From positions 1 through 12,379 of the forward strand of contig JAWCKZ010000017.1 in assembly GCA_038851325.1 (NCBI GenBank): a DNA stretch of 12,379 nt, given 5' to 3'. Shown here piece by piece: positions 1,973-9,205 of this stretch. A model generated the notes under the pieces. That model was not told the DNA's origin. It was given only the letters and a program-made list of their open reading frames with translations, and did not search any database. The DNA comes from Candidatus Bilamarchaeaceae archaeon. Lineage in GTDB: Archaea; Micrarchaeota; Micrarchaeia; Anstonellales; Bilamarchaeaceae. Position 1 is the stretch's first letter. Every line of letters starts with the position of its first letter. A program made the translations under genes and the position numbers.

Positions 1973-2503
1973 TTACCCCCATCGCCTAGTCAATTTGTGT
2001 TCTATACCAAGGTGATCGAGCACCCTTGCTACAACGAAATCTATTATATCACCGACGCTTTTTGGGTTGTGGTAGAAGCCTGGGGAGGCAGGCATTATTA
2101 CACCACCGGCAAGCGCTATCTTTCGCATGTTCTCGATTGCTATAAGAGATAATGGCGTCTCTCGAATAACGAGTATCAACTTTTTCCTCTCCTTCAGCGC
2201 TACCTCTGCAACCCTTGTTATAACACTTGACGATATTCCATTCGCGATTTCACCAAGAGTTTTTAATGAACAAGGTACCACGATCATTGCATCCGGCGGG
2301 TTAGAACCAGAGACGTAAGGACAGGAGAAATCCTCTTCTTCGTAATCAGCTTTCGGTATTTTTACATTCTCAAATTTAGCAACCTTTTTGGCAGCATCGC
2401 TAACCAAAACAGTTACATCATGCTTGTCTTTTTTTAGGATTTCAGTAAGTCTCGTTGCATATCGAAGGCCAGAGGCCCCTGTTATTGCTAAAACTATCTT
2501 CAT
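1973..2503 (-). CDS. ubiX: UbiX flavin prenyltransferase
   Basis: AITGASG, SGS, VPCSLKTL, ALKERKKL, RETPL and PASPGFY motifs. Confidence 0.95.
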   Translation of the reverse strand: MKIVLAITGASGLRYATRLTEILKKDKHDVTVLVSDAAKKVAKFENVKIPKADYEEEDFSCPYVSGSNPPDAMIVVPCSLKTLGEIANGISSSVITRVAEVALKERKKLILVIRETPLSLIAIENMRKIALAGGVIMPASPGFYHNPKSVGDIIDFVVARVLDHLGIEHKLTRRWG

Positions 2504-2522
2504 AGCACACCATCTGAGAATA

Positions 2523-2827
2523 ATGCGGGCTTCCCAGATTGCCGCTGGTTGCAGATGTGGAGCTTCTGCCGTCGGCTCAACCCTGTTTATCTGCGAGCAT
2601 GGACCTTATCGCTTATGGCTGCTCCTTTGCCGGCTCTGCTGGCAATAGTTTGAACGCCAGGTTTCAAAGCATCCGGCCTGACCAGGTTCGCAATAAGACC
2701 CACCGCGCAGGACAGGGTCTCAACACCTAAGACAAAAGACGCATCTACAAACAGAGACGCACTGGGCATTCGGCCTGTCTAAGGGGATTTACAGTTCAGG
2801 GACCCCTAGCCCCCACCTAGCCCGCAT
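2523..2827 (-). ncRNA. ffs: SRP RNA (large type with Alu domain), interrupted by a 45-nt BHB intron
   Basis: Terminal helix ATGCGGGCT/AGCCCGCAT; Alu-like 5' GGGCTAGGTGGGGGCTAGGGGTCCCTGAACTGTAAATCCCC; helix-8 signature GAACCTGGTCAGGCCGGA|AGGAGCAGCCATAAG once the insert is removed; TATA-like box upstream. Confidence 0.9.
2627..2671 (-). other. BHB-type intron (family C) in the SRP RNA helix-8 tetraloop, 45 nt
   Basis: Sense TGCTTTGAAACCTGGCGTTCAAACTATTGCCAGCAGAGCCGGCAA. Central helix GCCG/CGGC, bulges GA|U and AA|A, inner stem GCUUUG/CAGAGC. Splicing restores CAGG-CC-GGAA-GG-AGCAG. Confidence 0.85.
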
Positions 2828-2847
2828 ATGAATTAGGAAAAAAGCCG

Positions 2848-2863
2848 TTTTTAAACGTTATCG
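2848..2863 (-). promoter_or_regulatory. Putative archaeal BRE/TATA promoter of the SRP RNA
   Basis: Minus strand reads CGATAACG-TTTAAAAA, ending about 20-22 nt before the SRP RNA 5' end. Confidence 0.6.
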
Positions 2864-2875
2864 CAACCGAGAAGG

Positions 2876-3760
2876 TTACACCGGTGTAAAAGAACCGACG
2901 ATACGAAGCTTCTGATTGCTGGCGTCAACAACAAGAAGTGGATCTCTTTTCCGGTAGGCGATCTCCTTGTCCAAGCTTATCGAATTTTCCAGAACAGTTC
3001 CCTCTGCTGACTGAAAGGAGTAAAAAAAGGAAAGCTTTCTGTTTAGATCATCTTTATAAAATGGGTTTTTGTTAAAGCGGCCCATAATATTCTTGCTGTT
3101 CTCAAATTCGCTTCGTAGAGATACGAGCATCCCTCGCTCTATTGGTTCCCCTTTGTATGCGATACCAAATCTATCCCCTGCAACCGCTTCCTCAACATCA
3201 TTATCGTTAAGCTGGATGGAACGAACCTCCAATTCTTTCTTCTCAGGAAGATATATGAGTGTGTCGTGCTTCTTGATTTTACCTTCTTTTATTACCCCTA
3301 ACGCAACGTTTCCTACACTCTTCACGTTGATGTATTTATCTACAAAAGCAAGAAGCTCGCCTTCTCCAGACGTCTCTGCCTGTAGCTCAAGTAATTTTTG
3401 CTTTGCAGCAGTTTCATCTGCAACCTTATCGTATTTTTCAAGCACAGTTCCTTTTATCGGCAGGTTAAGCTGTGTAACGAGCATCCCTCTATCCTTTTTT
3501 AATGTATCCAGAGCAACGATTATCTCGCCAAGTTGCGGTGTAAGTTGGTCAGCAAGGACCACGACATAATCTGCTATGTAAAGCGCGTATACAAGCGGCT
3601 GGATTTTCTGAGGATAAAGCGTCGGTTCTACGATGGTATTTATCTTCCCGCCAAAATTTACAGAGTAGAACGCAATATCATCCTTGCCTGTCTCTTTGCC
3701 CACTGCCTTGCAGAACCTTTCCCGAACCTCTGGTTTATCTGACAAAACTGCGAAGAACAA
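2876..3760 (-). CDS. Archaeal SelB-like (aSelBL) EF-Tu domain-II protein with degenerate G domain
   Basis: VDKYINVKSVGNVALGVIKEG, VRSIQLNDND and GDRFGIAYKG match the EF-Tu/SelB barrel II. The N-terminus (GKETGKDDIAFY, YPQKIQPL) lacks a canonical P-loop. TTG start preceded by GGGTGG. Confidence 0.78.
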   Translation of the reverse strand: MFFAVLSDKPEVRERFCKAVGKETGKDDIAFYSVNFGGKINTIVEPTLYPQKIQPLVYALYIADYVVVLADQLTPQLGEIIVALDTLKKDRGMLVTQLNLPIKGTVLEKYDKVADETAAKQKLLELQAETSGEGELLAFVDKYINVKSVGNVALGVIKEGKIKKHDTLIYLPEKKELEVRSIQLNDNDVEEAVAGDRFGIAYKGEPIERGMLVSLRSEFENSKNIMGRFNKNPFYKDDLNRKLSFFYSFQSAEGTVLENSISLDKEIAYRKRDPLLVVDASNQKLRIVGSFTPV

Positions 3761-3822
3761 AAAACCACCCTTACTATACCTCTGCCGTATAACTTATAAT
3801 ATTTACTCTCTTTGTCATATTT

Positions 3823-4647
3823 ATGTTTGAAAGAAAACCTTGGTGCCATAAATACGACTTTGGCCATCTCCTAGTTGTTGGAGGTAACTGGAGGTATTCG
3901 GGCTCTCCGGCATTTAACGCCATCGCTGCACTTCGTACTGGAGTGGATGTTGTCACTGTGGCTGCGCCTGAACGCGCAGCGAACATAATCGCCGGGTTTT
4001 CTCCTGACATGATAACAGTTCCTTTACATGGAGATTTCTTAAGAAAGAGCCATGTTGAAAGACTTGTTTGCATCACGAACAATGAGAAGGTAAGCGCGCT
4101 TGCGGTTGGAGGTGGAATGGGAAGAGAACGCGAGAGCGCGAAAGCGCTGAAGGAACTACATAACCGGATCGAGCTTCCTTTTGTGTTTGATGCAGATGCG
4201 CTCCACGCGATGAAAATAGCAGGTATAAAACCTAGAAGTTGTGATGTTATAACCCCACACGGTGGAGAATTTAGAAATCTCTTCGGAACAAAGCCGTCTG
4301 AGAATGTGAAAGAAAGGATAGAACAAACAACTGCAGCAGCTAAAAAGACAGGTTGTGTTATTCTTCTCAAAGGGCACATTGACATAATAACTGATGGAAA
4401 GAAAACGAAAATCGTGAAGAAAAACAAATACGCGGTATACATGACGAAAGGCGGAACAGGAGATGTACTTACCGGCATTGTCGGCTCGCTCCTTGCGCAA
4501 GGATGGCCTGCATTCGATGCTGCTTATTATGCAACGGTCATAAACGGAAGGGCGGGCGAGGTTGTAGGGAAGGAAAAAGGTCCTGGGCTATTGGCAAGCG
4601 ACCTTCTTGATAGAATACCTGAAGCAATAAGAGTAATAAAGAAATGA
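3823..4647 (+). CDS. nnrD: ADP/ATP-dependent NAD(P)H-hydrate dehydratase (YjeF C-terminal domain)
   Basis: GHLLVVGG..YSGSP, AALRTG, FDADAL, ITPHGGEF, LLKG and GGTGDVLTG motifs. Confidence 0.93.
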   Translation: MFERKPWCHKYDFGHLLVVGGNWRYSGSPAFNAIAALRTGVDVVTVAAPERAANIIAGFSPDMITVPLHGDFLRKSHVERLVCITNNEKVSALAVGGGMGRERESAKALKELHNRIELPFVFDADALHAMKIAGIKPRSCDVITPHGGEFRNLFGTKPSENVKERIEQTTAAAKKTGCVILLKGHIDIITDGKKTKIVKKNKYAVYMTKGGTGDVLTGIVGSLLAQGWPAFDAAYYATVINGRAGEVVGKEKGPGLLASDLLDRIPEAIRVIKK

Positions 4648-4695
4648 GCCAACAAACGTTCGAACCAACAAATGTTCCTTTCCGTTGGTTACGCG

Positions 4696-5574
4696 TTACT
4701 CCTTGCTAACAGAGATACACGCTATTCCGTCCTTTGTAGGTTCGAAGCATTGCAAATTGCTGCCAGAGTCTTTTGTCTGAGCGCTTGTCTTTCTTATAAT
4801 TCTCTTGAATTTTCCAATAGTCAAACTAAGCTCGCCTTCCCGAGTTTTGACAAGCGCGGGTTTTCCAGTAATGTTCGTTTTGGCCAAAAACTTTAGCACT
4901 TCTTTTTTCGTGCTTTTAGCATTAATAGCATAGAGATAAGGCTCCCCTTTCTTTGCCTCTGATGCAATGAGTAGAATGTCCCCAATAACTTGCATGTCTA
5001 TGCGTGCGCTTGCTCTATGTTGTATATCCATTTTGTTGTAGTTTGAGTAAGCAACATCAACAGCCACAACAGAATGTTTTCGCGTTTTTGAATCCAGAGC
5101 AATAACAAAAACGAAATTTGGCGAGCTTATTGAACGTATATACTCTTCGTTTTCTTTTGCGTGTATAACGGTAAACCCGGTTGAGGAATCACCAAGCGCA
5201 GCCTTAAAAACAGATTCCTCCAGTCCTTCGTATCCTCTATCAGCCAGTAGAATGCATTTTGACCATATTATGATGGTTTGTACTTTTCTGCACTCTACGC
5301 TAAGGAGTGTGCCAACCTCTGGTAGCGGCAACATACGGTATTTCTTACTTTCTTTTCCATCGTAAAAAAATGTTAAAGTGGGCGCTCCGGACGGGTTAAC
5401 CTCGCACCTTCCGCCAGGAAAAAAAGCAACCGCTTTCTCAAGAGCAGCATTTTCCTCTAAAATTGGCAAAGACTTTTCCGAAGAAATACCAAATGTTCTC
5501 TGCGGCAATGATAGTGATGAGAGAACAAATTGTGAAGCAGCAAGTCCAGCAATCAGTTTTTTTCTGAGCCTCAT
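4696..5574 (-). CDS. Hypothetical protein, possible signal peptide
   Basis: 292-aa ORF filling the gap; basic then hydrophobic N-terminus (MRLRKKLIAGLAASQFVLSSL); SD-like GAGGG upstream; no family recognised. Confidence 0.7.
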   Translation of the reverse strand: MRLRKKLIAGLAASQFVLSSLSLPQRTFGISSEKSLPILEENAALEKAVAFFPGGRCEVNPSGAPTLTFFYDGKESKKYRMLPLPEVGTLLSVECRKVQTIIIWSKCILLADRGYEGLEESVFKAALGDSSTGFTVIHAKENEEYIRSISSPNFVFVIALDSKTRKHSVVAVDVAYSNYNKMDIQHRASARIDMQVIGDILLIASEAKKGEPYLYAINAKSTKKEVLKFLAKTNITGKPALVKTREGELSLTIGKFKRIIRKTSAQTKDSGSNLQCFEPTKDGIACISVSKE

Positions 5575-5725
5575 GAACCGCCCTCTGTTTCGGCTACTCT
5601 GTGTCAGTTAATAGAATGTTAAGAAAGAATTAAAAACCAAACGGAATTATTGAGGAGAGCTGGTATGTGCAAAGCTGGTACGCGCGAGTTTAAAAATATA
5701 TCTAGCGAATATTTATCGTGATACC

Positions 5726-6091
5726 ATGACAGATGAGAAGAAAGAAGAGAAACTTCGTCTTGTAGACATAGGAGGAGGGTATTACTTCGTGGTGCCTGCA
5801 GAGAACCTGAAACATGCTCTTTTAGAGTTTAAACCACCGAAGGAGAAAACGTCTGAAGCGCTGAAAAAAAGCTATATCGATCTTGTGGAGAAACTCGGTA
5901 TAACGGTCTACCGCATCACAAAAACACCGAAAGGAGAGAAGTGGGAGATCGTAAAGGATCCGAACAAGCTTGCAAAAGCTGGAGAGGAGGCGTATAAGAT
6001 AGCAAAGGTAGAAACTGAAAAGAAAATTATGCGTGTTCCATCCTTTCAAAAATATAAGCTTTCCAAAAATATAAGAATAAAAAATAAATAG
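5726..6091 (+). CDS. Hypothetical Lys/Glu-rich protein
   Basis: 121-aa ORF with composition like the neighbouring genes; TTTAAAAA about 30 nt upstream; no family recognised. Confidence 0.7.
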   Translation: MTDEKKEEKLRLVDIGGGYYFVVPAENLKHALLEFKPPKEKTSEALKKSYIDLVEKLGITVYRITKTPKGEKWEIVKDPNKLAKAGEEAYKIAKVETEKKIMRVPSFQKYKLSKNIRIKNK

Positions 6092-6105
6092 ATAAAGAGC
6101 GCTTT

Positions 6106-6780
6106 TCATCGCTGCACATTTTGCATACAGGTAATAAGCGCTTGGCCTGAAAGTCCTTCGCACACTTCATAACCAGGTGGAAGTTCTGGCATAGGCGGAA
6201 TTAGATCGTCCATTGTGCAAATCTTTCCTGGTGTGGCGAATTTTTCATCACCAAAACTTGCCGGGTGACAGTCAACCTTAACTTGCGCAGGATTTCTATA
6301 ATTCTCAATAGCTGTAGAATAATCTTTAGGCTCTTCTGCAGATTTTTGCTGTTCGAATACTATCCACGCGCACTCTACTTCTTCTGGTAATTCCATTACG
6401 GATGCATCGGTATAAATCTTGTTATCCTTAACCACAGCTACGGTCGTTCGACCCTCAATCCTACTCTCCGCTCTCAATCTACCAGATTTTACCCAATAAT
6501 GCGTTGTCGTGGTAATTCCATTGCTGGTTGTTGTGGTCGTGCACTCTATCGGTACTGATTGCGCAAGCGCGTCTCCAAGATTACTAATCTGTTTGCTTAC
6601 TGCTTCACCAACTCCGCTCCCTGCGCTGGCAGGTTGCTCCCCTCCTGTCTGCTGTCCTGCTCCGCCTGCGGTTGCTTGGTTACCACCGCTCGTTGACTGG
6701 CCCGAAGGCTGACCTGGTATTGATATGCAACCTGTAAGCAGAACAAGCGCTAGGATTCCGAATACGATAAATCGCTTCAT
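6106..6780 (-). CDS. Hypothetical exported (lipo)protein
   Basis: MKRFIVFGILALVLLTGC lipobox-like signal, G/S/Q-rich linker, then a Cys-containing domain; SD GAGGTG upstream. Confidence 0.8.
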   Translation of the reverse strand: MKRFIVFGILALVLLTGCISIPGQPSGQSTSGGNQATAGGAGQQTGGEQPASAGSGVGEAVSKQISNLGDALAQSVPIECTTTTTSNGITTTTHYWVKSGRLRAESRIEGRTTVAVVKDNKIYTDASVMELPEEVECAWIVFEQQKSAEEPKDYSTAIENYRNPAQVKVDCHPASFGDEKFATPGKICTMDDLIPPMPELPPGYEVCEGLSGQALITCMQNVQR

Positions 6781-6830
6781 TCACACACCTCTTAAACAGA
6801 AGCTGTAGTAAGATTTATAGTAAGATTTAA

Positions 6831-6850
6831 AAAGGAATAATATTATAAAG
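6831..6850 (+). promoter_or_regulatory. Putative BRE/TATA promoter of the 16S rRNA transcription unit
   Basis: Purine-rich AAAGGAATAA followed by TATTATAAAG, upstream of the processing stem. Confidence 0.55.
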
Positions 6851-6925
6851 TAATTCTGCGCTCTGAAGAGCTCGAGGCATGCTTTTCTGGGCGCGAATGT
6901 GGAAATCTAATATTTTTAGATTTGA

Positions 6926-6953
6926 CTCACGCTTCAAGAGAGAACGTATCCGA
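6926..6953 (+). other. 5' strand of the pre-16S processing stem (BHB-like)
   Basis: CTCACGCTTCA pairs with 9224-9234, AGAG with CTCT 9217-9220, and GTATCCGA with 9206-9213; 3-nt bulges AGA and AAA. Confidence 0.85.
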
Positions 6954-7263
6954 ACAGCCAATTCTAAAGACGTGCTTTCCAAAATTCGTATGCAGAGATC
7001 AACTCCAGTTGATCCTGCTGGAGGGTACTGCTATCGGACTCCGACTAAGCCATGCATGTCTACGGCTGGACTTCTAGCCGTGGCGGAATGCTGAGTAACA
7101 CGTAGTCAACCTAACCTAAGGACGGGGACAACCTCGGGAAACTGAGGACAATCCCAGATAGGCGATGGGGACTGGAACGCCTCATCACCGAAATGGCTGG
7201 TGAATTGGAGCCAGTCCGCCTTAGGATGGGACTGCGGGGGATTAGGTAGTTGGTGAGGTAACG

Positions 7264-7304
7264 AATTTTTCAGCGATTTTTAGAAAGCGTTGGAAAATTT
7301 ACAG
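7264..7304 (+). other. 16S intron 1 (family A, 41 nt, about E. coli 265)
   Basis: Strict BHB: helix GTAA/TTAC, bulges CG|A and AG|G, outer stem GGTGAG/CTCACC. Restores GGTAACGGCTCACC. Confidence 0.92.
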
Positions 7305-7393
7305 GCTCACCAAGCCGATAATCCCTAGGGGCCATGGGAGTGGTGGCCCCCAGAGGCACACTGAGACAAGGGTGCCAGCCCTACGGGGTGCAG

Positions 7394-7435
7394 ACGTGCG
7401 ACAGCACCGATGTATGGTGATGGAACACGGCATAA
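7394..7435 (+). other. 16S intron 2 (family B, 42 nt, about 354)
   Basis: Helix GTGC/GCAT, bulges AG|A and AA|C, relaxed outer side. Restores CCTACGGGGTGCAGCAGG. Confidence 0.9.
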
Positions 7436-7550
7436 CAGGCGCGAAACCTCCGCAATGCGCGCAAGCGTGACGGGGGGAGTCCGAGTGGCGACAACTTTGT
7501 TGTCGTCTTTTGCCGAGTGTAAGCAGCTCGGAGAATAAGGGTGTGGGCAA

Positions 7551-7591
7551 ACACAAAACGCGCACGATATATGGACGCGTGAGTGGTTCAA
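7551..7591 (+). other. 16S intron 3 (B-related loop GATATAT, 41 nt, about 509)
   Basis: Helix GGGC/GTTC, bulges AA|A and AA|G. Restores GGGCAAGACTGGTG. Confidence 0.88.
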
Positions 7592-7607
7592 GACTGGTGG
7601 CAGCCGC

Positions 7608-7650
7608 ACGCTATTTGTTCAGGTTTTTAGGAAGGCAAATGGCGGGCTAG
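7608..7650 (+). other. 16S intron 4 (family A, 43 nt, about 525; 530 loop)
   Basis: Helix AGCC/GGCT, bulges GC|A and AG|C. Restores CAGCCGCCGCGGTAA. Confidence 0.92.
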
Positions 7651-7734
7651 CGCGGTAACACCAGCGCCTCAAGTGGTACCCACGAATATTGGGCCTAAAG
7701 CGTCCGTAGCCGGTTTGGCAAGTCTTCTGTGAAA

Positions 7735-7777
7735 AGATGTTGCCTCGTGGAGCGATTTGCGAGACTTCGTCTCACAA
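7735..7777 (+). other. 16S intron 5 (family C-like architecture, 43 nt, about 609)
   Basis: Helix GTGA/TCAC, bulges AA|A and AA|T, inner stem GATG/CGTC. Restores GTGAAATGTTGGGG. Confidence 0.88.
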
Positions 7778-7789
7778 TGTTGGGGCTCA

Positions 7790-7831
7790 ACGCATGACAG
7801 CGCCGATGTATGGCGATGGAATGCGGGTTAT
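7790..7831 (+). other. 16S intron 6 (family B, 42 nt, about 621)
   Basis: Helix GGCT/GGTT (wobble-rich), bulges CA|A and AT|A. Restores GGGGCTCAACCC. Confidence 0.9.
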
Positions 7832-7992
7832 ACCCTAACGCGTGCAGAAGATACTGCCTGACTCGGGAGCGGGGGAGGGCAGGGGTACACCCGGGGTAGG
7901 GGTAAAATCCGTTGATCCTGGGTGGACCACCAGTGGCGTAGGCGCCTGTCCAAAACGCGTCCGACGGTGAGGGACGAAAGCTGGGGGAGCGA

Positions 7993-8037
7993 AACACGAG
8001 ATAGCCAGGTTTTTAGGAAGGGCTACCGAGTGTTCAA
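7993..8037 (+). other. 16S intron 7 (family A, 45 nt, about 781; boundary +/-1)
   Basis: Helix GAGC/GTTC, bulges GA|A and AA|A. Restores GGAGCGAACGGGATTAG. Confidence 0.88.
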
Positions 8038-8126
8038 ACGGGATTAGATACCCCGGTAGTCCCAGCTGTAAATTATGCAGACTTTGGTGTTACGCGCGAG
8101 TAATCGCGCGTAGTGCTGTAGCGTAG

Positions 8127-8161
8127 ACACACACTGTCGAACGACGAAGAGTGTGGCGTAA
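8127..8161 (+). other. 16S intron 8 (unassigned family, 35 nt, about 866)
   Basis: Helix GCGT/GCGT (with G-U pairs), bulges AG|A and AA|G, inner stem CACAC/GTGTG. Restores GCGTAGGTGTTAAG. Confidence 0.85.
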
Positions 8162-8199
8162 GTGTTAAGTCTGCCGCCTGGGGAGTACGATCGCAAGAT

Positions 8200-8235
<36 letters not shown>

Positions 8236-8312
8236 CCGTGGATGCTACGGTTCAATTGGATACAACGCCGGGAACATCACCAAGGGCGACGGCAGCATGA
8301 AGGCCAGACTAA

Positions 8313-8357
8313 ACAAGGTCTGAGGGTTTTTAGGCACGTACTCAGACCTTGGTTCAA
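8313..8357 (+). other. 16S intron 9 (family A, 45 nt, about 1015)
   Basis: 11-bp inner stem CAAGGTCTGAG/CTCAGACCTTG; helix GACT/GTTC has one mismatch; bulges AA|A and AA|A. Restores CAGACTAAAGATCTTG. Confidence 0.8.
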
Positions 8358-8414
8358 AGATCTTGCCTGACAAGCCGAGAGGTATTGCATGGCCATCGTC
8401 AGCTCGTGGCGTGA

Positions 8415-8456
8415 ACGCGTGACAACGCAGATTTATTGCGGTGGAACGCGGTGTAA
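8415..8456 (+). other. 16S intron 10 (family B, 42 nt, about 1080)
   Basis: Helix GCGT/GTGT (wobble-rich), bulges GA|A and AA|A. Restores CGTGAACTGTCC. Confidence 0.9.
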
Positions 8457-8470
8457 ACTGTCCGGTTAAG

Positions 8471-8517
8471 ACCTTTGAAATGTAGCGCATTTCAAAATTT
8501 GCTACCAAAGGTAGCAA
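8471..8517 (+). other. 16S intron 11 (family C, 47 nt, about 1094)
   Basis: Helix GTTA/TAGC, bulges AG|A and AA|T, inner stem CCTTTG/CAAAGG. Restores GGTTAAGTCCGGCAACGAGCG. Confidence 0.92.
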
Positions 8518-8656
8518 TCCGGCAACGAGCGAGACCCATGCCCATAGTTGCTAATCTCTTCTCCGGAAGGGATGCACTCTACGGGGACTGCCCGCGTTAA
8601 GTGGGAGGAAGGAGTGGGCGACGGTAGGTCAGTATGGTCCGAAACCCTTGGGCTAC

Positions 8657-8701
8657 ACACGAGGTTCGGGTTTTTAGGAGTGCACGAACCGAGTGGGCCA
8701 C
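8657..8701 (+). other. 16S intron 12 (family A, 45 nt, about 1226; first of a tandem pair)
   Basis: Helix GGCT/GGCC, bulges AC|A and AC|A, inner stem CAC-GA-GGTTCG/CGAACC-GA-GTG. Confidence 0.88.
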
Positions 8702-8743
8702 ACGCATGACAGCGCCGATGTATGGCGATGGAATGCGGGCCAC
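8702..8743 (+). other. 16S intron 13 (family B, 42 nt, about 1226; second of a tandem pair)
   Basis: Follows intron 12 directly; helix GGC(C/T)/GGCC, bulges AC|A and AC|A. Removing both restores GGGCTACACGCGG. Confidence 0.88.
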
Positions 8744-8837
8744 ACGCGGCATACAATGGGTGGAACAATGGGTTGCGACTCCGAGAGGAGAAGCTAATCC
8801 CCTAAATCCACTCTCAGTTCGGATTGAGGGTTGCAAC

Positions 8838-8881
8838 ACAAGGTTCAACCAGGTTTTTAGGAAGGGTTGAGCTTGGGCAAA
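8838..8881 (+). other. 16S intron 14 (family A, 44 nt, about 1320)
   Basis: Helix TGCA/GGCA (3 of 4 pairs), bulges AC|A and AA|T. Restores GTTGCAACTCACCC. Confidence 0.85.
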
Positions 8882-8938
8882 TCACCCTCATGAAGCTGGA
8901 ATGGCTAGTAATCGCAGGTCATCATCCTGCGGTGAATG

Positions 8939-8970
<32 letters not shown>

Positions 8971-9044
8971 GTCATCCAAATGTGTTTTCGGTGAGGCCCC
9001 GGTTATTGCCGGATTCGAACCGAAGATACGTGAGGAGGGCTAAG

Positions 9045-9088
9045 AGCTTTGAGCTGGTGCTCAAAATTTGCCAGCCAAGGGCTAGCAA
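9045..9088 (+). other. 16S intron 15 (family C, 44 nt, about 1494; decoding site)
   Basis: Helix GCTA/TAGC, bulges AG|A and AA|T. Restores AAGTCGTAACAAGG. Confidence 0.92.
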
Positions 9089-9108
9089 TCGTAACAAGGT
9101 ATCCGTAG

Positions 9109-9150
9109 ACGCATGACAGCGCCGATTTATGGCGATGAAATGCGACGGAA
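9109..9150 (+). other. 16S intron 16 (family B, 42 nt, about 1514; helix 45)
   Basis: Helix CCGT/ACGG, bulges AG|A and AA|G. Restores CCGTAGGGGAACCTGCGG. Confidence 0.92.
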
Positions 9151-9205
9151 GGGAACCTGCGGATAGATCACCTCCAAATTTTATTTGAGCGTGCGAGGAA
9201 GCACA

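Follow-up and report, generated by a model that had tools for sequence, protein, structure and literature searches.

The locus examined here raises the question of how a signal recognition particle (SRP) RNA can function when the loop at the tip of its helix 8 is split by 45 nucleotides (nt) of additional sequence. The gene lies on the minus strand (2523..2827) of contig JAWCKZ010000017.1 of Candidatus Bilamarchaeaceae archaeon (assembly GCA_038851325.1); the stretch of 12,379 nt that was analysed is called the window below. SRP RNA is a universal and essential non-coding RNA, the tip of its helix 8 lies in the helix that binds SRP54, and the tetraloop promotes docking to the receptor (FtsY). 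Introns of the bulge-helix-bulge (BHB) type are known in tRNA, rRNA and cbf5 mRNA. From relatives, fold and a family profile, we consider it highly probable that the 45 nt (2671..2627, minus strand) are an archaeal BHB mini-intron in the SRP RNA gene that would be removed by the endonuclease EndA and the ligase RtcB, with the GGAA tetraloop of helix 8 being recreated.

Read along the minus strand, the helix-8 apex runs from CAGGCCGGA at the 3′ end of exon 1 (2672..2827) through the 45 nt to AGGAGCAG, exon 2 (2523..2626) starting with AGGAGCAGCC; both exons were delimited by alignment to the SRP model and by the relatives. Exactly 45 nt separate GGA from the final A of the tetraloop (GGA|A), and their excision gives CAGGCCGGAAGGAGCAG. 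The junction has a one-base ambiguity (GG|A..CA|AA or GGA|U..AA|A), and the product is identical in either register. An earlier note on this DNA had described such an insert, and its coordinates and split point proved exact against the Rfam alignment and the relatives. In both Rfam alignments, the helix-8 apex comprises 49 nt instead of the 6 of the model, and both flanks are placed at high posterior probability.

The SRP RNAs of relatives were gathered with the Rfam model used for the gene in the window. In the 11 that were aligned (5 congeners and 6 from the same family), the apex is uninterrupted (CAGRYCGRAAGRAGCA) without exception; these RNAs are 259 to 275 nt long compared to 305 nt here, and the gap in the alignment measures exactly 45 columns. 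CAGGCCGGAAGGAGCAG is found unbroken in 8 of the 11, with an exact match in 5/5 congeners, and the other 3 have a close variant without the insert. Among 30 SRP RNAs (the own one and 29 from relatives), a regular expression found the uninterrupted motif in 25; G036 and G040 have a variant helix-8 motif and no insert, and G000 (the genome of the window), G030 and G028 are interrupted at one common place. Comparison with relatives, a check proposed in the earlier note, therefore gave a plain loop in every aligned relative and no retained extension. Exact removal of the insert restores the conserved helix-8 sequence, and in the computed spliced RNA the junction takes the form of a stem of 2 bp with a 4-nt loop, next to the symmetric internal loop, which is the normal tip of helix 8.

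The insert is also present outside the assembly itself. Contigs from three DNA runs of one hot-spring metagenome study, which may include the source sample and which were assembled separately, cross it without a gap (X1, 3554 nt; X3, 632 nt; X4, 6299 nt). The X4 contig is a strain variant with 59 differences over ~4.1 kb (~1.4% diverged), one of them within the intron, at 2644. Because the contigs of three runs span the insert, a one-off misassembly is excluded; coming from a single study, they do not amount to independent confirmation. Among the 15 of 48 DNA-contig joints that were listed, none runs across 2626/2672 and so skips the SRP insert.

Folding of the 80-nt region at minimum free energy (MFE; −25.7 kcal/mol) gives a BHB. 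The central helix H (4 bp) pairs GCCG of exon 1 (2674..2677) with CGGC of the intron (2629..2632) and is backed by the MFE fold and by covariation. A 3-nt 5′ bulge, G-A|U (2673-2671), follows, and the 5′ junction sits after its second base, with a predicted cut after 2672. Helix h′ (6 bp), formed by GCUUUG (2665..2670) and CAGAGC (2633..2638) and backed by RNAalifold as well, stacks directly on H along the 3′ strand. At the 3′ junction, A-A|A (2628-2626), the cut is predicted after 2627; all these elements are on the minus strand.

The SRP insert has relatives within the same window. It aligns with two inserts of the 16S rRNA gene (8471..8517 and 9045..9088, plus strand; blocks 11 and 14 of that gene) and with two 16S inserts of the congener G006. 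Likeness to 16S introns 11 and 15 had been claimed before, and block 14 is number 15 in a count that takes block 12 (87 nt) for two inserts. From a six-member MAFFT alignment (A2, in which hairpin 1 of G030 is misaligned by one column), RNAalifold predicts H, the 3-nt bulge, a 4-bp h′ and a hairpin 1, and a covariance model, R1, was built from the same six members, with CUUUG...CAAA...UUGCCAGC as the family signature. R1 matches five places in the own genome, all of them in RNA genes (16S twice, SRP once, tRNA T-loop twice), and 66 places in 40/151 genomes of the order at an E value of ≤1e-4. For larger counts, we used an alignment of 37 members from 32 sources that was fitted to the model structure (A3). 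Their hosts, judged by eye from the exon flanks, are SRP helix 8 (2 members), a first 16S site (2), a second 16S site (7), tRNA T-loop-like sites (17), tRNA D-loop-like sites (6) and uncertain, tRNA-like sites (3).

The membership of the SRP insert does not hinge on its own inclusion in the model. A profile made from the intron columns of 31 of the 37 A3 rows, with the three rows of the window, the SRP intron of G030 and the two tRNA introns of the own genome dropped, recovers the insert at 2670..2627 (envelope, 2671..2627) with a genome-wide E value of 0.0019 (0.9 Mb). It is the third-best match in the genome, behind the 16S introns of blocks 11 and 14, which bears out the claimed likeness for all three; both 16S introns rest on alignment, R1 and this profile. 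Since members occur in 16S rRNA, in SRP RNA and in D- and T-loops of tRNAs, the family has moved between RNA classes, as the earlier note had supposed, and by its sequence the SRP intron is one copy of a mobile, non-coding mini-intron family that occupies SRP RNA, two sites in 16S rRNA and the D- and T-loops of tRNAs. The two tRNA T-loop introns of the own genome are located, by reading of the sequence, at C10:3616-3674 (+) and C1:97137-97192 (−); ARAGORN and Rfam miss both tRNA genes, and the former, which has a D-loop insert too, reads by eye as tRNA-Gln(UUG). A two-hairpin look-alike found by regular expression downstream of the 16S gene on the opposite strand in another genome (L037, G010:C63, 2382-2432, −) was rejected; it gives no R1 match at an E value of ≤1.

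Exon and intron co-vary in this family. In A2, 24/24 cells of H are paired, and 3/4 pairs of H are changed on both sides between SRP hosts (GCCG/CGGC) and 16S hosts (GYUA/UARC). In A3, 91.2% of the H cells are paired and again 3/4 pairs show double changes, in 9 to 11 cells each. The four bases that precede the last two of the intron, its 3′ guide, complement the local 5′ exon across five host contexts, whatever the host gene. The central exon-intron helix is therefore kept by compensatory change among homologous introns, and this pattern is the mark of selection for cleavage by the endonuclease.

Two further genomes are interrupted at the same SRP site. The interrupted-apex pattern matches 3/176 genomes of the order (G000, G030 and G028), which belong to three different families, and has no match in the other 173. 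The SRP intron of G030, also 45 nt, is a member of the mini-intron family, and its hairpin 1 differs by compensated changes; it is 80% identical to that of the window, compared to 63% for the SRP exons, and it is absent from G038 and G045, congeners of G030. The SRP intron of G028 is 53 nt long and has H = GCCG/CGGU, identical bulges and an 11-bp h′, a structure within 0.3 kcal/mol of the MFE. R1 matches G028 on C9 only and not at the SRP intron on C49. The G028 intron is, to judge from this, unrelated in sequence to that of the window and shares its BHB geometry. A looser pattern, run on a sample of 401 genomes of the phylum, gave extra matches in G104, G217 and G429 that were set aside as chance; they are not SRP RNA (cmscan, none at an E value of ≤0.001), and a 5S gene near one of the three loci was the only RNA that cmscan found there.

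Other long SRP RNAs of the order were inspected as well. In those of G098 (L051), G079 (L052) and G041 (L053), which are 307 to 319 nt long, the helix-8 apex is intact and 40 to 55 extra nt lie in the Alu or helix-5 region, possibly as introns located elsewhere in the SRP RNA. The SRP RNA of G136 (same family; L056, C54) has a 20-nt insert at 212-231, in the 3′ strand of helix 8 and five bases downstream of the site in the window, with a perfect BHB at its alignment-defined ends (H = GAAG/CUUC and a short h′ hairpin). A generic BHB scan (4-bp H with G-U pairs allowed, h′ of ≥3 bp) over the other long SRP genes was uninformative, with dozens of matches per structured RNA, and only the G136 match, which coincides with the alignment-defined insert ends, was retained from it.

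The genome encodes both enzymes that splicing would require. EndA (391 amino acids, with two nuclease-like units in one frame) matches the structure 4fz2_A, the epsilon2 enzyme of ARMAN-2, from end to end (E = 4.5e-130), a best solved-structure match that is consistent with the placement of the organism in the Micrarchaeota, and RtcB is encoded with a score of 559 bits. Strict as well as relaxed BHB motifs, a T-loop intron among them, are substrates of the ARMAN-2 epsilon2 enzyme in vitro (PMC3239211). A second frame with a tRNA_int_endo match (159 amino acids, 37 bits) was seen at G000 C8:40030-40257 (+). In the primary transcript, CGGC of the intron would pair with GCCG of the exon just upstream of the 5′ splice site, and the intron would be closed by GCUUUG/CAGAGC. 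The epsilon2-type endonuclease would then cut after GGA and after the terminal AA of the intron, and RtcB would join the exons and probably circularize the intron. Joining of the exons would recreate the CC-GGAA-GG hairpin tip of helix 8. We infer that the SRP RNA is spliced and that SRP function needs this splicing; a working SRP would very probably depend on the tRNA-splicing enzymes.

A number of observations weigh against a BHB intron. On the 3′ side, the bulge is non-canonical: AAA forms part of a 2x4 internal loop together with the symmetric loop of helix 8, two unpaired bases of which lie opposite the third A and the G after it, and the exon-exon helix h is nothing but this non-Watson-Crick symmetric loop. 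As a clean bulge of 3 nt is thus lacking here, the motif counts as a relaxed BHB (HBh′). The GCCG/CGGC helix of the BHB described in the earlier note is real in the MFE fold, and the relaxed 3′ side had gone unremarked. The insert is a predicted substrate whose BHB is strict at the 5′ junction and relaxed at the 3′ junction. Furthermore, the energy of the fold is ordinary (z = −1.03; 27/200 shuffles fold equally well) and was discarded as evidence for an intron, and in G030, enforcing the BHB costs 5.1 kcal/mol relative to the unconstrained fold of the isolated 80-nt piece. As the fold energy is ordinary and BHB-like motifs are everywhere in structured RNA, the case for an intron rests on the comparative data and not on the fold. 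These data have their own biases: 92.7% of the cells of the whole A3 structure are paired compared to 74.5% in shuffles (0/500 reach it) and 29 to 44% with slid partners, and A3, being fitted to the model structure, favors that structure, while the family members are related, so that shuffle counts overstate significance. The exon complementarity of the four guide bases is independent of this fitting bias. An alternative hairpin 2, taken up below, is conserved and co-varies and sequesters the 3′ guide. The gene scores slightly under the Rfam gathering score for Archaea_SRP, and the case as a whole comes from DNA comparison, from which cleavage, ligation and circle formation are predicted. A look-up of RNA sequencing runs for positions 2400-9100 of the window listed none with this organism.

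Could the insert be kept in the mature RNA? A mobile hairpin element, tolerated as an unspliced expansion of helix 8, would agree with the ability of the insert to fold into two hairpins alone and with the covariation of hairpin 2. It would, however, put ~49 nt in place of a conserved tetraloop, and the relatives retain no extension. In addition, the 3′ guide follows the exon and not the internal partner where the two conflict, the unrelated insert of G028 keeps the BHB geometry at the identical site, and the family sits in D- and T-loops of tRNAs, where removal is obligatory; we regard retention as improbable. Cleavage that is not followed by rejoining would leave a two-piece mature SRP RNA, held by helices 5 and 8 and devoid of a GNRA loop. 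The BHB evidence supports cleavage only, and fragmented stable RNAs exist elsewhere. Against this speak the presence of RtcB, which must ligate the many intron-bearing tRNAs of the genome, and the exon sequence recreating the exact GGAA, which is conserved in all three intron-bearing SRP genes. Such conservation of the exon ends is expected only if the loop is re-formed, and a two-piece RNA appears very improbable.

A mobile element might also have inactivated the gene, which would then be a pseudogene, with the function of SRP RNA lost or provided by an unassembled copy. The genome is 90.9% complete in 18 contigs and a second copy could be missing, and the Archaea_SRP (RF01857) match at 2827..2523, obtained with permissive thresholds, reaches 90.6 bits compared to a gathering score of 96.5. 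The low score is accounted for by the intron and by a lineage-wide loss of helix 6, because the congeners without the intron, in which helix 6 is missing too, score only 66 to 105 bits. Both exons can be aligned end to end with the SRP models, and the flanks of helix 8 have high posterior probabilities. SRP54 is intact, and the insert has been kept in a diverged strain and is found in two further families of the order; loss of function is most unlikely on these grounds. An artefact or chimera of assembly has next to no probability: the genome is metagenome assembled and repeated mini-introns could mislead an assembler, but the separately assembled contigs of three runs of the one study, including those of 3554 and 6299 nt, span the insert without a gap, and a homologous intron is found in another genome, that of G030. 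The reading that stands is a genuine and probably spliced intron.

The BHB is not the sole selected fold of the intron, since hairpin 2 is conserved and co-varying. The conserved internal segment UUGCCAGC (2638..2645, minus strand; from A3) has two possible partners: CCUGGC (2661-2656), which is the loop of hairpin 1, and the last bases of the intron, GCCGGCAA (2634-2627), with which it would form hairpin 2. Hairpin 2 competes with H and h′, as it uses the 3′ strands of both and the terminal AA. In A3, 86.9% of its cells are paired and 7/8 of its pairs show double changes; one of these, U-A to C-G, involves the terminal AA and is unexplained by the BHB fold. Unpaired cells of hairpin 2 cluster at 3/4 guide positions (17, 7 and 7 in A3, compared to 8, 0 and 2 for the pairing with the exon). 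The loop of hairpin 1 and the internal segment have a mean longest run of complementarity of 5.4, compared to 4.7 with shuffled partners (0/500) and 3.5 with shuffled loops (0/300). This loop-to-tail complementarity (CUGGC/GCCAG) was noted across the family and would form a pseudoknot with hairpin 1. In our reading, the family would be an element with an ancestral self-paired form, the guide of which has been re-tuned to each new exon. It is imaginable, and we offer it as a speculation with a small chance of being right, that the intron is a retargetable two-state mobile RNA. The four-base 3′ guide would pair either with the real 5′ exon, giving the BHB, or with UUGCCAGC as an internal mimic of the exon. 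Hairpin 2 might then serve the spread of the element, for example by reverse splicing of the excised circle into RNAs with four matching bases, or might be a switch that times or limits splicing.

Related introns at different sites and in different RNA genes of one genome have reportedly been found before, in the transposing (paralogous) tRNA intron families of Thermoproteales described by Fujishima et al. in 2010, and are said to imply that such introns can move with no homing endonuclease involved. The family described here differs in that SRP RNA and rRNA are among its hosts, and we know of no description of a four-base exon-matching 3′ guide with an internal competitor hairpin for the tRNA introns of Thermoproteales. 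The 16S "HP" BHB introns of Thermoproteales (<50 nt; PMC4496867) resemble the inserts of the window in size (35 to 47 nt), in the lack of an open reading frame and in the combination of hairpin and BHB, and the 16S gene of the window has 15 to 16 such inserts. The phylum is a different one, and here one family is common to 16S rRNA, tRNA and SRP RNA; the density of inserts (683 nt in one 16S gene) is far above the loci tabulated in the available part of that work (PMC4496867). In ARMAN-2 (Candidatus Micrarchaeum acidiphilum), tRNA introns are processed by a three-unit epsilon2 endonuclease (PMC3239211). These share with the SRP intron the enzyme type, short length, non-coding nature and strict or relaxed BHB motifs, and the family described here occupies T-loop sites similar to the published 59/60 intron position. 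In contrast to ARMAN-2, the host is SRP RNA and not a tRNA and a functional GNRA tetraloop is split; the available passages of PMC3239211 make no mention of SRP.

The closest precedent within SRP RNA is the permuted gene of Thermoproteus tenax and T. uzoniensis, the product of which matures via a BHB, the tRNA splicing endonuclease and RtcB (PMC4731332), as we infer for the RNA of the window. In contrast to Thermoproteus, the gene is colinear and the intron internal, and no circular mature RNA is implied. A permuted or circular SRP RNA of this type was ruled out for the window, because the gene is colinear with model positions 1-317. An ancestor of the permuted gene with a simple intron is, in the passages available, only postulated (PMC4731332). 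Circular segments of 7S RNA of unknown function have been described and are not introns (PMC3326292), and a BHB intron in the cbf5 pre-mRNA of Crenarchaeota (PMC2738675) is likewise located outside tRNA and rRNA, its host being protein coding and not, as here, a non-coding RNA. An internal SRP RNA intron is not described in the available passages of PMC4731332, PMC3239211, PMC12397907, PMC12918454 and PMC3326292, and a literature search found no report of one, supplements and subscription-only papers lying outside its reach. This agrees with the earlier note, the author of which knew of none either.

Regarding the gene itself, cmscan found two RNA genes in the window, the 16S rRNA (7002-9069, plus strand) and the SRP RNA, and the latter is the single SRP RNA match in the genome of 0.9 Mb. 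It was assigned with the models of Rfam clan CL00003 and is 305 nt long with and 260 nt long without the intron; ~260 nt is the length of the SRP RNA in most relatives within the order. Bacteria_large_SRP gives 93 bits at 2825..2525 (cut-off, 60), and the covariance-model match that places the gene in CL00003 is full length and includes the Alu domain, helix 5 and the helix-8 motifs. The gene falls outside the archaeal type proper (RF01857), as a 40-nt segment of helix 6 is missing and the score stays below the gathering score. SRP19 (PF01922) was not found in the genome at the completeness given above, in a search that missed 1/4 archaeal control genomes, and the M domain of SRP54 is encoded (95 bits); the particle may be SRP54-only and bacterial-like. 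A TATA-like box, TTTAAAAA (2848..2855, minus strand), can be read ~21 to 28 nt upstream of the 5′ end of the SRP RNA, and the gene is flanked by open reading frames at 1973-2503 and 2876-3760, both on the minus strand.

The 16S gene of the window (7002-9176, plus strand) is itself rich in inserts. Compared to the intron-less gene of G003 (92.3% identity in aligned columns), it has 15 insert blocks of 35 to 87 nt; the one of 87 nt probably comprises two introns, for a total of 16. By sequence, at least three families can be told apart among the inserts. Position 9069, where the Rfam match stops, is still within an intron, and the gene continues to GATCACCTCC near 9176. Numbers differ strongly among congeners (0 in G003, 2 in G005 and 10 in G006). 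DNA contigs were seen to skip insert 1 (7262-7304; 41 nt; X4) and insert 7 (7989-8035; 45 nt; X1, X2 and X4), with joints the short sides of which measure only 24 to 26 nt; such contigs point to alleles lacking these inserts, or to close relatives, in the community.

In sum, an intron of a known kind occupies a new host class and a new site, helix 8 of SRP RNA, in a lineage whose tRNA genes were already known to be fragmented. The sole published link between SRP RNA and tRNA splicing is the permuted gene of Thermoproteus, and the locus described here would be its postulated simple-intron state, found in nature. By this account, a third class of stable RNA is open to BHB mini-introns, even in its most constrained loop. 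Together with the 15 to 16 introns of the 16S gene and the tRNAs with several introns, the SRP intron suggests that in a symbiont genome of 0.9 Mb, the tRNAs, the 16S rRNA and the SRP all depend on one endonuclease and one ligase. If the two-state idea were true, the biogenesis of SRP, ribosome and tRNA would hang on one pair of enzymes and one selfish element. For the family as a whole, the data give a testable rule of retargeting, the match of four bases to the exon.

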